A stretch of 64,000 bases of DNA, taken from positions 436,001-500,000 of the forward strand of contig MU053933.1 of the NCBI GenBank assembly GCA_013239625.1, given 5' to 3'. Positions 22,517 to 60,626 of this stretch are shown piece by piece. Within the stretch, counting starts at the first letter, position 1, and the number at the start of each line of letters is the position of its first letter. Under the pieces are notes generated by a model. That model saw only the letters and a program-made list of their open reading frames with translations, was not told where the DNA came from and searched no databases. The DNA comes from Lama guanicoe. Lineage: Eukaryota. The position numbers and the translations under genes were made by a program.

Positions 22517-22759
22517 AAAAAGGCCTCTCTTTGCTGAGTTACCAGCTGTGCAACCAGAGCGTGGCCCGGAGCGTGCCGCGTGTGGAGGCCGTGCAGACGT
22601 CCCTCCTGACCCACGTGCCCTGCGGCCGCTGGATCCCCTGGCGGCGCTGCCCCAAGACGGTCTACAGGACCCGCTTCCAGGCAGTGGAGGTTCCCGAGTG
22701 GAGGAATGTGACCGACTGCTGCGAGGGCTACGAGCAGCTGGGCCTCTACTGCGTCCTGC
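22517..22759 (+). CDS. UMODL1: UMODL1 exon 2: EMI domain
   Basis: Pyrimidine tract + TAG acceptor; EKGLSLLSYQLC...CGRWIPWRRCPK...DCCEGYEQLGLYCVL; donor GTGAGT; 243 nt. Confidence 0.95.
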
Positions 22760-28199: not shown

Positions 28200-28361
28200 C
28201 CCTGAATCGGTCGGCGGAGTTTGCGTCCAGACCTGGGACCTGCCCGACAGTGGGGCCGGAAGCATCCACCTCGCCATGTGCCCTGGACACCGACTGCCCC
28301 GGCCTTCAGAAGTGCTGCCCCTGGCCGGGGGGCCTGCGCTGTGCGGCTCCCGCTCCCCAAG
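28200..28361 (+). CDS. UMODL1: UMODL1 exon 3: WAP-like domain
   Basis: CACTAAC branch-like site at 28170-28176, CAG acceptor; RPGTCP...CALDTDCPGLQKCCPWPGGLRC; donor GTGGGG; 162 nt. Confidence 0.94.
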
Positions 28362-29144
28362 GTGGGGCTGGCGCCTGAGCAGAGGAGGTCTCCAGTTAGG
28401 GAGTGGAGCGGGGCTGGGGGCCCAGGCACTGGGTGATGGGGTGATGGGGAGTGAGCTTCCAGAAGCAGCGGCTCGGGTTTTACAGGAAGCCTGTGCCCAG
28501 GCCCCCTGTACTCATCCAAACCGGCCACTGGCCCCTCAGGGCGGGCCGCGGGCTCGCAGGTGCCCTGAGGAGGCAGGGCGTTCCAGGAAGAGCAGTGACC
28601 CCAGTTTCCCAAGTTTGCCTGACGAAGCCCCCGAGCTCCCGGCGGAGCTTCCTGGAAGCTGAGCTGTGTAAGAGGGGAAAGGGGTAAGGCTGTCTGCTGG
28701 AGAAGCTCCATGGGGCCCCGAGGTCCTCCCCGTGGCCCCCTTCCGGCAGGTGGGCGGCCTGGCCCTCAGGGCCCGCCCCCCGGAGAACGGGCTGGAAAGG
28801 TTCAGAGCTGGGGAGACAGATACAAAAAGCCTTACAATATACAACATCCGTTACATGTTGTGTGTTAGTGCAGTGTGTGCCTTATTAGCGCAGTATGAAG
28901 TGATAGCACAAATAACGTAAAGCAGGGCATTATAATATTTATGCAATACTACGACACAAACAACGCACAACGGTACTCGCGCTGTGCGCGTCGTAGTGCG
29001 CGCAGTATCAATGGCACACCGCGCTACCTAGGGCGTGCTGTGTACAACAATGTACAGTGTATACGGGATTATACGCAAGAGGAGGGGGCGGGGGGCTGTC
29101 CCGCGCTGTCCTGGCCTGGGGCTCAGCGATGTGTCCTCATGCAG

Positions 29145-29266
29145 CTCCGGAGGGGACCCTGGCAGGTTTCTGGTACAACGTGACCGTCCTGGTGAAGATG
29201 GACTTCAAGGAGCTCCGGCAGGTGGACCCCGGGCTCCGGGATCACATGCGGCTCCTGCACTCCATG
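29145..29266 (+). CDS. UMODL1: UMODL1 exon 4
   Basis: GCAG acceptor; APEGTLAGFWYNVTVLVKMDFKELRQVDPGLRDHMRLLHSM; donor GTAGGT; 122 nt, phase 1 to 0. Confidence 0.93.
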
Positions 29267-30244
29267 GTAGGTGGGGCAGGGAGCCTGTGGGCTGCACGGG
29301 AGACCCAGGTGGGAACTGGGGTTTGGGGAGAGGTTCCACGAGCGATCCCCGAACGACTGACTCTGACCAAGTGAGAAGTCTCAGCTGAAAGCCGCTTTGA
29401 AAGGGTGGGTATCCGTGCGGTAAAATGCACCCTTGGAAGCGTGCAGTTTGGTGTGTTTTGAGGTACACAGCGTGCAGGCCCTGCCCCATCGTGCTGCAGA
29501 GCACGGAGCCCCTCCTCCTCGCGCTCGGGTCTGTGGCTTAAACAAAGGTGCCCCGGTGCAGACGGCCTAGGCCCCGGAGCCGTGCCCTCGCGCACCTCCC
29601 TCACAGATCTCGAGGTCTAGCTCCCGCACGAGGGAATGTCCTGGAAGGTGCCGGGCTGGGCCCTGTGGACCGGGCTCCTCCACCTCGGCACCACTGACGT
29701 TTGGGGCTGGATGGCTCTGTGTCGTGGGGCTGCCTGTCCCCACGGGGTTCCACAGCTGTGACAACCAGAACTGTCCCCCGAGGGGCAGTGCCGCTCCGGG
29801 TGGAGAGCCCCTGCTGGAGACACAGCTTGTGCCTTGGTGACTTCCAACCAGGAGGGCTGTCACGTGCCGGGTGCACCCTGGTCCTGGCAACCCAGTCGTG
29901 GGCAGGCCTGGCTTGTCTTCACCACGCGGTGCCTTCCCAGAGTGGGGGTCTGGCCTCAGGGCCCGCTTCAAGGTCGAGCGGCCCGCACAGTCACCCCACA
30001 CTCAGAAGAGCCCACACACCACGTGGCTGGTCCCGCCTGATCGTCGGGTCCCACAGATGTGTCCCACGTGTCGTGGCAAGAACAGACGGCCCGCCCCTCA
30101 CCTTGCCGTGGGCTGTCCAGTCAGACGGTTTGAGAGATGTTCCCAAATGTCCCTGTGACCCGAGAGCCTCCTAAGTGCCCCGGTGGGAGGGGGCTTCTGT
30201 CTCCTTAGCTCATTGGAGGGCTGGGGCTGCCTGCTTGGCCAGTG

Positions 30245-30435
30245 AGGCTGTGGCTCTGGAGCGAGACTACCTTGATTCAGATCCTCACGCTGCCACTCAT
30301 CAGCTGTGTGACCTTGAGCAAGTTACTTAACCTCTCTGTGCCTTCAATGCCTCCTCCAGGAAACAGGAATGAGCAGAGTCTCACTTGAGCAGTGGCTGTG
30401 GGGTTTAAACAGTACATGTAAAGAGCATAAAAGGA
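30245..30435 (+). mobile_element. MIR SINE
   Basis: MIR core agctgtgtgaccttgagcaagttacttaacctctctgtgcct. Confidence 0.85.
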
Positions 30436-30994
30436 TCCTGCTGCGTATCAGTTCTGAGCTGCTGCAGCTGTTGGTATTTGAATATTGCTGCCCCGTGTCA
30501 CCCGTTGTCTCCTCAGGTGGTAGGTTTTGTCCCTCCCTGCAGGAGGGGCCTGTCCGCACGGGCTCCTGACTGCAGCAGGTGCTGGCCCCTGACTGAGGGA
30601 TTTGCACGAGGCTAGCGTTGGCCTTCTGTTCTGCCTGCCCCCGTGAAGGGTTCCAGGTCTGCCGAGGGGAGCAGGGACCCCAGTGCCCAGACGCCACCAC
30701 AGGCCTTCCTGGCTCCCGTGGAGGCTTGGGGGTTTGTTGGCAAAGTCCCCTCCAGTGATGTTCTGTGCCTGAGTGGCCACGCCGCTTTGCCTGGCTTCCC
30801 AAGGCAAATACTATCTTGAGATTTCGAGGTATTAGGTTGGAGTAAAAAGAATTCATGTGAAGTGAGAAAGGGGTCATTAAACTTCAGAAAATGTCAGATG
30901 TGCACCACGTGAGCTTGAAGTCTAGTCCCTAATTCCATCCCGATGCCGTCATCAGCTGCCAGGGTGGGGACTGGGGTGTCCTGGGGTTGACCGA

Positions 30995-31291
30995 TGTCTC
31001 TCCCTGGGCGGCTGTAACAAAGCACACAGACGGAGGTGCCCCCCAGGCCTCTCCTTGGCGTCTCCCTGTGTCCTCCCATCACTTCCTTCTGCCAGCGTCT
31101 GTATCCAACTTTCTTTGTGTAAGGACACCAGTCATACTGGACACAGGCCCACCCTAATGAGCTCATCTTAACTAATTACATTTGCCACGGCTGTCTCTCC
31201 AAATAAGGTCACATTCTGAGGTTCCCGGGGGGGTTAGGGCTCTGAATTGGGGATTTTTGCTAGGGAGGGGGACACCATTCAATCCATAACA
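30995..31291 (-). mobile_element. MLT1B-like LTR with internal deletion
   Basis: ggctgtaacaaagcac...aaggacaccagtcatactgga...ccaaataaggtcacattctgagg...attcaatccataaca. Confidence 0.8.
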
Positions 31292-31389
31292 ACTGGTGTT
31301 GCCATTCAATCTGTAACAACCTCGTTTGCAGAATGATTACAGAAATAAAAATATTGTAGAGATTTTTTCCCCCCCTGCACAGGAGAAAG

Positions 31390-31391
<2 letters not shown>

Positions 31392-31427
<36 letters not shown>
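31392..31427. repeat. (GT)18 microsatellite
   Basis: Direct reading. Confidence 0.95.
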
Positions 31428-31430
<3 letters not shown>

Positions 31431-31512
31431 TTTAACATCTCTGGGCTGCCATCTCCCTGTCCGTCTGATGGGGGCGCCCTTCCACCGCGTGACACTCTGG
31501 CTGGTTTCACAG

Positions 31513-31699
31513 GTCACCGGTGCCCTGCAGCCGCTGGACACCACGGTCCACCACCTGCGCTCGGCCGGCGGGGCCACGTCGACCACGGTGTCCTGGCTGC
31601 TGCTGGGCTTGCCACGGCCGGCGCCGCCGGCCCGCGTGTCCTCAGCCCTGGACGGCATGGTGCAGCGCATCTACGAAGTGATGGCTGTCCAGGTGCAAG
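31513..31699 (+). CDS. UMODL1: UMODL1 exon 5
   Basis: TTTCACAG acceptor; VTGALQPLDTTVHHL...RIYEVMAVQVQ; donor GTGGGT; 187 nt, phase 0 to 1. Confidence 0.92.
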
Positions 31700-31749: not shown

Positions 31750-31766
31750 NNNNNNNNNNNNNNNNN
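31750..31766. other. Assembly gap of 17 N after a G-run in intron 5
   Basis: N run; does not touch an exon. Confidence 0.99.
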
Positions 31767-33292: not shown

Positions 33293-33433
33293 ATGTAAAC
33301 GAATGTTCCTTTGACGAACTCCACACCTGCCCTGCAAGGGAATGGTGTGTGAATGTGGAGGGCTCGTACCGGTGTGTCTGTCCCCCTGCGTCGCTGACTT
33401 CATCTCCCCAGGAGCTGGACAGCCCGTGTGAAG
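33293..33433 (+). CDS. UMODL1: UMODL1 exon 6: calcium-binding EGF-like domain 1
   Basis: DVNECSFDELHTCPAREWCVNVEGSYRCVC...SPCE; TAG acceptor, GTGAGA donor; 141 nt. Confidence 0.95.
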
Positions 33434-44300: not shown

Positions 44301-44413
44301 ATGCCTGGGTCTTTGAAGTCACGGTGAGGATCCTAAACCACAATGTGACGGAGAGGCTGCTGGACCGCAGCAGCCCTGAGTACCTGAACTTCTCCCGACA
44401 GCTGCTACACGAG
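44301..44413 (+). CDS. UMODL1: UMODL1 exon 8: SEA domain 1, N-terminal half
   Basis: DAWVFEVTVRILNHNVTERLLDRSSPEYLNFSRQLLHE; CAG acceptor, GTAAAG donor; 113 nt. Confidence 0.94.
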
Positions 44414-45830: not shown

Positions 45831-46050
45831 GTTGAAAACTCCTTCCCGCCAGCGGTTTCCGATCTGTACAGAAGAGGGAAGCTGAGGGTACAGATCGTGT
45901 CCCTCCAGGCTGGAAGCGTGGTCGTGAGGCTCAGACTCACAGCATGGGACCCCGAGTTCCCAGTGGGTGTGTCCACGCTGGCCCCCATGCTCCCGCCACT
46001 GTGGGCGAGCAGCGTGTTCCGGATCGACCCGCAGGGGACACGTGTGCAAG
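45831..46050 (+). CDS. UMODL1: UMODL1 exon 9: SEA domain 1, C-terminal half
   Basis: VENSFPPAVSDLY...QAGSVVVRL...GTRVQ; CAG acceptor, GTGAGT donor; 220 nt. Confidence 0.95.
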
Positions 46051-50423: not shown

Positions 50424-50561
50424 ACTGGGACGAGTGCGCGGACACTCTGGAGCACGACTGCTCGCCGGCCGCCCGGTGCATCAACCTCGAGGGCTCGTAC
50501 ACCTGCCGGTGCCGCACAGCCAGGGACGCCGACCCCTCCAGACCGGGCCGGGCCTGTGAGG
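50424..50561 (+). CDS. UMODL1: UMODL1 exon 10: calcium-binding EGF-like domain 2
   Basis: DWDECADTLEHDCSPAARCINLEGSYTCRC...RACE. Read by hand because this frame is absent from the ORF track. CAG acceptor, weak GTGCGC donor; 138 nt. Confidence 0.94.
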
Positions 50562-55272: not shown

Positions 55273-55385
55273 CGGCCCAGAAGCTCAGCGGACAGGTCAG
55301 AATAGCGAACGTCAGGTATTCAGAATCCTTCCGCAACGCGAGCAGCGGGGAGTACCAGGCCTTCCTGCGGCTGCTCTTCAGGGCG
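55273..55385 (+). CDS. UMODL1: UMODL1 exon 13: SEA domain 2, N-terminal half
   Basis: AAQKLSGQVRIANVRYSESFRNASSGEYQAFLRLLFRA; CAG acceptor, GTACGT donor; 113 nt. Confidence 0.94.
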
Positions 55386-58160: not shown

Positions 58161-58374
58161 GTGCGGGATTCCTTGCCAGCCTCCATGCGTCAGCTCCTGG
58201 ACACAGGTGGGGTGCGGGTGGAGGTGACCCGCATCGCCAATGGCAGTATCGTGGTGGAGTTTACCCTGCTGATCGTTGCAGACGTGGATGTCCAGGAGGT
58301 GTCTGCCGCGTTCCTCACCGCCTTTCAGAACATGTCTCTGCTGGAGGTGGTCGGAGGGGACACCTCCATCTGGG
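58161..58374 (+). CDS. UMODL1: UMODL1 exon 14: SEA domain 2, C-terminal half
   Basis: VRDSLPASM...ANGSIVVEF...DVQEVSAAFLTAFQ...GDTSIW; AAG acceptor, GTACGT donor; 214 nt. Confidence 0.94.
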
Positions 58375-59984: not shown

Positions 59985-60600
59985 TTTGGCGGCGGCGCGG
60001 CGGCTCGCGCCCAGGACCTGTGCGTGCTGGCGCGCCCTGCCGCTGAGCGGCACCTGCCCCCAGTCGGCCTGTTAAAGGACCGGAAGGAAGTGTGTCAGCG
60101 AGCGAACGCGCACGCCGGGCGGCGGCCGCCCGGGGGACTGTGTGCTCTCTGCTGAGCTGCCCGGGGTTTCATCTGTTTTCCGCAGTAAACCTGCGTTACC
60201 AGTCAGGTGACCAAGCGGAGAGATAAACGGAGAGCGGCTGCTGGGGTCCCTCTGCCCGAGCCCGGGGCTGGGTGGGGTCCCTCCGGCCTGCTGGCCTCCA
60301 GGGAGCTGAGGGGCTGCTGCCCCACGCCCCGGCCCCACCCCCTCCCCGGCAGAACGTCGGAGCCGCTCTGGCTCCCGAACCCGGGAGTCCGGCTGTCGCT
60401 TGAGCACGGAACTTCGCTCCCCGAGGCGCGCCTGCCCCGTCGGGCGGCCGCGGAGGGCCTCCGGACTAGCTTTCTAAATGCCGTGCAGATTACGACGAGT
60501 GCGAGAGGAGGGAGGACGACTGCGGACCGGGCTCCGCCTGCCGCAACTCCCTGGGGTCGTTCACCTGCAGCTGCGGGGGAGGCGCCCCCGGCGTCCCCGT
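59985..60600. promoter_or_regulatory. Intragenic CpG-island-like region overlapping exon 15
   Basis: Visibly very high GC and CpG density (not computed); ETS- and E2F-like motifs. Confidence 0.65.
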
Positions 60601-60626
60601 AGAATATTCTGGAAGACCCTGTGAAG
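60489..60626 (+). CDS. UMODL1: UMODL1 exon 15: calcium-binding EGF-like domain 3
   Basis: DYDECERREDDCGPGSACRNSLGSFTCSC...RPCE, read by hand; GCAG acceptor, GTAAGA donor; 138 nt. Confidence 0.94.

Follow-up and report, generated by a model that had tools for sequence, protein, structure and literature searches.

Exons 4 and 5 of camelid UMODL1 probably encode a divergent, non-cleaving SEA domain

SEA domains cut themselves because a short hairpin is under strain, and inserting glycine greatly reduces this autoproteolysis (10.1101/2023.06.27.546760). Other SEA-like domains, those of Notch NRR, EpCAM/Trop2, PCDH15/CDH23 and Nup54, are not autoproteolytic; they are divergent and ferredoxin-like, carry no cleavage motif, adjoin a structured N-terminal neighbor and in most cases are juxtamembrane proteolytic switches (PMC6586460, citing Pei and Grishin, 2017). 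For UMODL1, known in the mouse as olfactorin, a 62-kDa shed N-terminal form, detected as an N-terminally FLAG-tagged product, was found to attract GN11 cells in a heparin-sensitive manner (PMC8874799). The passages of PMC8874799, PMC3489600 and PMC3542605 that concern UMODL1 list SEA domains without the copy described here, in line with the depiction assumed in an earlier prediction made from the sequence of this locus (the original prediction). That prediction proposed a cryptic third SEA domain in exons 4 and 5 and allowed that structure studies might already have noticed it. They have: Schaeffer et al. (2023; PMC10041065, Dataset S1) place residues 91-115 and 166-265 of human Q5DID0 in an ECOD SEA domain (H-group 304.47, reference e1ivzA1). 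Q5DID0 is human UMODL1, and 1318-aa primate orthologues put the segment at 161-266. A third SEA domain of UMODL1 is already catalogued in this structure-based classification of 2023, as one spreadsheet row; the main text of PMC10041065 mentions neither SEA nor UMODL1, the supplements of PMC10368619 have no UMODL1 row, and the passages returned by a literature search on UMODL1 mention no third SEA. Beyond the ECOD entry, the present analysis contributes annotation and a hypothesis on a protein that has received little study; the exon evidence, the motif loss and the function are not discussed in the ECOD paper.

The window analyzed here, a 64,000-nt stretch of Lama guanicoe DNA, contains a camelid UMODL1 gene. 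A model of 16 exons, built by tblastn and splice-site inspection, spans 18961-61760 and gives 1093 aa open without a stop; its alignment to Camelus ferus UMODL1 (P0001) needs no gaps and shows 94.4% identity. P0001 was also the top match (95%) among the UMODL1 proteins returned by an exon 5 query. The encoded order is signal, EMI, WAP, exons 4-5 (aa 161-263), cbEGF, FN3, SEA1, cbEGF, mucin-like exon, FN3, SEA2, cbEGF and ZP (Table 1). We refer to the segment encoded by exons 4 and 5 as SEA0. It lies between the WAP and a cbEGF of an extracellular, glycosylated mosaic surface protein and itself carries a conserved N-x-T sequon. Both exons have canonical AG/GT splice sites, and their junction was placed on the basis of splice sites, reading frame and orthologous proteins. 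Just 5´ of exon 4, a ~270 bp stretch of intron 3 (28810-29080) is AT-rich yet CpG-rich between GC-rich flanks; no tandem repeat was found in it, and its RNA fold was unremarkable (z -0.94). Fifty bases 3´ of the exon 5 donor there is a 17-base N gap (31750-31766), which leaves the exon untouched.

Table 1. Positions in the window of SEA0, the two canonical SEA domains and adjoining features of UMODL1
Feature	Position	Strand	Remarks
Exon 2 end, aa 91-106, first part of ECOD 91-115	22711-22759	+	Remainder at 28200-28225; human numbering assumed to equal camelid
Exon 3, WAP, directly 5´ of SEA0	28200-28361	+	Pfam, gene model
Exon 4, aa 161-201: linker, β1, short helix and most of long helix α1 of SEA0	29145-29266	+	122 nt, phase 1-0
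Conserved N-x-T sequon, exon 4	29177-29185	+	76/85 aligned rows
Exon 5, aa 202-263: end of α1, β2-β3 hairpin, α2 and β4 of SEA0	31513-31699	+	187 nt, phase 0-1
β2-β3 hairpin of SEA0, predicted non-cleaving	31543-31611	+	No G-S-V-V-V; 5-residue loop at 31570-31584
Exon 6, cbEGF 1, 3´ of SEA0	33293-33433	+	141 nt
Exon 8, SEA1 first half	44301-44413	+	113 nt
Exon 9, SEA1 second half	45831-46050	+	220 nt; G-S-V-V-V at 45912-45926, likely autoproteolysis site
Exon 10, cbEGF 2	50424-50561	+	138 nt
Exon 13, SEA2 first half	55273-55385	+	113 nt
Exon 14, SEA2 second half	58161-58374	+	214 nt; G-S-I-V-V at 58242-58256
Exon 15, cbEGF 3	60489-60626	+	138 nt

The exon pairs of SEA0 (122+187 nt), SEA1 (113+220 nt) and SEA2 (113+214 nt) share one layout, exactly as had been claimed: the phases are 1-0-1 throughout, and a cbEGF exon comes next in every case. 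Exons 1 to 16 are separated by 15 introns, exactly three of which are in phase 0: those that split the segment, SEA1 and SEA2. When the profiles of the segment and SEA1 were aligned end to end, their phase-0 introns occupied one and the same column, after M41 of the segment and E38 of SEA1. In the structure models presented below, they lie within the long helix of each (32-45 in the segment, 26-41 in SEA1), which bears out, for these two modules, the proposal that the intron interrupts the same helix position. The comparison of intron phase and position was made against the two SEA modules of UMODL1; a literature search returned nothing on intron positions in SEA domains. We also considered that the segment might be a ferredoxin-like domain of separate origin, similar to ACT, S6 or PheRS domains, that has come to resemble SEA by convergence and shares the exon layout by coincidence. 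Extracellular modules are usually bounded by phase-1 introns, so the outer boundaries are compatible with such an origin, while the shared column of the phase-0 intron within the helix, and the restriction of phase 0 to these three of 15 introns, argue for common descent with SEA1 and SEA2, as do the extracellular location of the segment, its adjoining cbEGF and the presence of two true SEA-EGF units in the same gene.

The sequence itself gave no comparable signal. Global BLOSUM62 alignment of the segment with SEA1 and SEA2 yielded z scores of 1.3 and 1.4, with 60 and 55 of 500 shuffles scoring as well, compared with 8.0 for SEA1 against SEA2 and 1.6 for an FN3 control. The residue-level likeness alone is no better than chance, and the alignments drawn by eye in the original prediction therefore needed a structural test. 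The register proposed for the first strand agrees with the profile alignment; that of the hairpins is ambiguous by a few residues. A SEA profile match to the exon 4-5 peptide, one of the checks suggested for the prediction, was not obtained. Pfam SEA (PF01390) matched none of nine segments at a maximum E of 10, nor exons 4-5 alone, with just weak matches to DUF7673 and similar families (E at least 0.013), whereas Pfam identified two SEA stretches in each of four full-length UMODL1 proteins. By threshold, SEA0 is outside PF01390. The hhalign probabilities for the segment against SEA1/SEA2 were 0.22/0.43% with clean profiles, 0.30/0.44% in a second version, in which cross-contamination of the SEA1 and SEA2 profiles inflated their mutual score, and at best 2.8% in a third (A2/A3 alignments), where the E of 0.016 over 65 columns is the best of three versions and is to be discounted accordingly. 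In the second version, unrelated controls scored E=0.004-0.015 across short alignments, and none of the segment-SEA scores is significant. Similarly, no known SEA protein other than UMODL1 was among the 96 matches of a 9-sequence segment profile in 1.84 billion representatives, an HMM of the UMODL1 canonical SEA reached a best E of 0.16 on 58 SEA0 sequences, a search of PDB sequences with the segment profile gave two chance matches (E 0.3-0.35), a further PDB sequence search showed no solved UMODL1 structure, and a feature-based search of the ESM Atlas came back blank, reaching no SEA. The lack of significant sequence or profile likeness to SEA1 and SEA2 would be expected for a domain of separate origin, and the missing Pfam match and pairwise similarity would equally suit a degenerate or unstructured linker, in which case the third SEA would be illusory.

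The linker reading is largely refuted by computation, and we consider it scarcely credible. AlphaFold2 was run without templates on the segment of Camelus ferus P0001 with 85 sequences, covering SEA0 alone; just 3 of its 104 residues are different in the window, making the P0001 stretch a fair stand-in for the guanaco segment. The model had a pLDDT of 90.1 and a pTM of 0.80, with a pLDDT of at least 90 for 78 of the 104 residues, and all five models scored 88-90. The alignment of 85 rows is almost gap-free, with hydrophobic residues spaced as in a β-α-α-β-β-α-β domain. For SEA0, identity was 72% to 14 mammals, 58% to 9 birds and 38% to 21 distant rows, compared with 73, 52 and 29% for SEA1; SEA0 is as conserved as SEA1. 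The structure matches described next and the ECOD row also both indicate SEA rather than a linker.

As modeled (E9-17, H21-27, H32-45, E52-60, E66-74, H80-93, E97-103), SEA0 is a ferredoxin-like β-α-β-β-α-β domain. When the model was compared with 48,161 PDB representatives, ranks 1-6 were all SEA domains (Z 10.3-9.0), namely MUC16 SEA5 (7sa9; Z 10.3, rmsd 2.9, 100 residues aligned), 1ivz (10.3), GPR126 (6v55; 10.2), 8gkl (10.1), TMPRSS6 (9nrc; 9.4) and 2e7v (9.0). The nearest solved structures are thus SEA domains with a ferredoxin-like fold, which is the structural outcome that the original prediction had anticipated. The SEA domains of MUC16 (7sa9, 1ivz, 8gkl and 8vm1), GPR126/ADGRG6 (6v55) and the TMPRSS proteins (9nrc and 2e7v) have the same fold as SEA0 over 92-104 residues (Z 9.0-10.3, rmsd 2.9-4.1), but their identity to it is only 7-15%. 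MUC1 and enteropeptidase SEA, which had been named for comparison, were absent among the SEA0 matches listed; the cleaved half-chain of MUC1 had a Z of 5.7 even with a SEA1 control. For this control, UMODL1 SEA1 of the narwhal (P0013) was folded likewise (pLDDT 93.4; E2-15, H18-21, H26-41, H45-52, E56-64, E67-77, H85-96, E109-111). The same six SEA entries occupied its ranks 1-6 (Z 13.2-8.5), with a best non-SEA match of 7.5. GPR126/ADGRG6 SEA scored higher with SEA0 (10.2) than with SEA1 (8.5), and mesothelin-bound MUC16 SEA (8vm1), a hint that SEA domains can act as binding modules, was rank five when the Foldseek matches were re-examined.

The sharing of all six nearest structures places SEA0 in the same structural neighborhood as SEA1, of which the models indicate that it is a more divergent member, less clearly set apart from other ferredoxin-like folds. 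At ~95 aa, SEA0 is shorter than the SEA domains that it matched, and the additional helix found between α1 and β2 of SEA1 is missing from it. Folds of this kind abound (3,263 chains at Z of at least 2), non-SEA matches to SEA0 reached Z 8.1-8.5 with PheRS best at 8.5, the sixth SEA (9.0) ties with PheRS, and the margin of SEA0 over non-SEA ferredoxin folds is modest. With Foldseek alone, an ACT domain ranked first and SEA-like chains were mixed with S6, ACT and PheRS domains, all of which could point to separate origin; on re-examination of the Foldseek top 1000, however, five SEA chains led. The identity of the top six ranks with those of the SEA1 control, in addition to the intron evidence and the ECOD assignment, makes separate origin highly unlikely in our estimation, and SEA0 very probably has a SEA fold and is homologous to SEA1 and SEA2. 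The ECOD entry for Q5DID0 makes the same assignment for the same segment, and its reference, 1ivz, is the joint top match found here. That classification was also derived from an AlphaFold model, which makes it independent of ours in pipeline though not in method. On the evidence of the two models, SEA0 belongs to the structure-defined SEA group (ECOD H-group 304.47).

The original prediction further described the UMODL1 ectodomain as three SEA-EGF units. Fold, nearest structures, intron position and the ECOD assignment support the repetition of SEA-EGF, with two refinements: an FN3 domain precedes only SEA1 and SEA2, while the WAP precedes SEA0, and many distant orthologues have SEA0 with one canonical SEA. 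Homologue searches gave 74 proteins, mostly from mammals, and a bird query gave 264, of which the 120 matches listed were from birds. From the 96 profile matches, we left out two repeat proteins (P0206 and P0288) as false positives. Among the 43 kept matches that were longer than 400 aa and had a UMODL1-type architecture, 37 had one canonical SEA, five had two and one had none; because the segment itself served to select these proteins, finding it in them is circular, and some gene models are possibly partial. The majority with one SEA suggests that the doubling of FN3-SEA-EGF is younger than SEA0. SEA0 probably arose long ago, when a SEA exon pair of phase 1-0-1 was duplicated or shuffled together with its cbEGF exon. 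In some distant UMODL1 orthologues the FN3 arrays are expanded (six domains in P0207, five in P0264), and P0229 has an internal ZP-FN3-SEA duplication; P0273 is in the same group. In the set of models P0029, P0043 and P0049, the mucin-like exon is missing from those of the golden mole and elephant shrew, and FN3-SEA1-EGF2 from that of the pocket gopher, with SEA0 kept in each; these gaps may be isoforms or annotation gaps.

SEA0 shares with SEA1 and SEA2 the 1-0-1 exon pair, the intron column, the following cbEGF and the nearest structures, but unlike them it does not match Pfam and has no G-S-x-x-V in a 2-residue turn. For SEA1, the hairpin is a 2-residue turn ending G|S, whereas that of SEA0 has a 5-residue variable loop (positions 60-61 variable). 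The anchor-to-anchor span was 20-22 aa in 85/85 rows for SEA0 and 15 in 73/73 rows for SEA1 (3 of 76 SEA1 rows were dropped for gaps). The SEA0 hairpin is 3-5 residues longer. The G-S motif was present in 71/73 SEA1 rows and in 1/85 SEA0 rows, in agreement with the claim that the first unit lacks G-S-V-V-V. By motif and by tightness of the hairpin, SEA0 would not fall in the self-cleaving (MUC1-type) subclass. Since cleavage of SEA domains needs a strained tight hairpin, the longer hairpin and the loss of the motif suggest by analogy that SEA0 is probably non-cleaving. In this it would be similar to the divergent SEA-like domains mentioned above, of which Nup54, PCDH15, CDH23 and Notch chains appeared at lower ranks in the SEA0 structure searches. 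SEA0 likewise has a structured N-terminal neighbor, but it is ~1,050 residues from the membrane anchor, in contrast to the juxtamembrane position of most of these switches (PMC6586460).

Cleavage of SEA0 in another way, by non-canonical self-cleavage through conserved Ser, His and Glu residues or by a protease at the longer hairpin loop, strikes us as improbable. Several polar residues of the segment are strongly conserved (numbered as in the model: K18 83/85, H34 83/85, R36 81/85, S68 77/85, E96 84/85) and, to judge by the topology, would come together at the hairpin end and not near the chain termini; bacterial SEAL domains are reported to self-cleave without a SEA motif, and the SEA-like domains of PMC6586460 are, as noted, proteolytic switches. 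Against this, the loop is variable in sequence and longer than a strained turn, and the 62-kDa N-terminally FLAG-tagged form of olfactorin is too large for a cut there. With Mus pahari as a stand-in, a cut in SEA0 would leave 22 kDa with 4 sequons, one in SEA1 48.5 kDa with 12 and one in SEA2 83 kDa with 15; the fit of these masses to 62 kDa assumes a glycan mass. Judged by size, SEA1 is the somewhat favored source of the fragment, and since a SEA1 cut fits best, SEA0 would remain intact in the active fragment. The G-S-V-V-V of SEA1 (Table 1) is a candidate cut site for 62-kDa secreted olfactorin.

The overall reading that we regard as likely is that exons 4-5 encode a divergent SEA domain homologous to SEA1 and SEA2 that does not cleave, the cut being made in SEA1 instead. 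SEA0 would then be a stable structural and binding module of an N-terminal head (EMI-WAP-SEA0-EGF-FN3), and cutting at the SEA1 G|S would free this head with SEA0 intact, consistent with the 62-kDa mouse olfactorin. This gives an account of shedding that is simple and testable. The domain map of UMODL1 would be corrected to EMI-WAP-SEA0-EGF-FN3-SEA1, with a SEA domain and an EGF, ~150 residues, separating the WAP from the first FN3. In passages of PMC8874799, the first 700 residues are modeled on anosmin-1 at 13% identity and a "WAP-FnIII.1" segment is docked on FGFR1; given the SEA domain and EGF between WAP and FN3, this model probably misthreads the SEA0 region.

The ECOD domain also takes in residues 91-115, which are absent from our model of SEA0. 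This stretch contains cysteines, and C93, C94, G96, E98, G101, Y103, C104 and F114 are conserved at 90% or more; its grouping with SEA0 in ECOD hints that it packs on the domain. A complex prediction for residues 28-159 and 165-264 gave a score of 0.01 in a run in which the alignment was not used and the partner fold was uncertain. Possible roles for the conserved polar residues of SEA0 are capping of the fold, contact with residues 91-115 and ligand binding. A bolder proposal, which we hold to be doubtful, is that SEA0 forms the ligand-binding core of the shed olfactorin head, as a composite EMI/WAP-SEA module with residues 91-115 and a polar binding site conserved since early vertebrates, that this explains the chemoattraction of GnRH neurons, and that the anosmin-based model published for the N-terminus is incorrect there. 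If so, the putative site would comprise K18, N33, H34, R36, S68 and E96, the partner might be heparan sulfate, FGFR or another molecule, and the chemoattractant activity for GnRH neurons would be due to the SEA0 module instead of to a WAP-FNIII pair of the kind found in anosmin-1. Finally, we noted that the guanaco model shows two Arg-to-Trp differences from Camelus ferus P0001, in cbEGF1 (exon 6) and at aa 398 in strand β1 of SEA1 (exon 8); each may be a species difference, a polymorphism or an assembly error.
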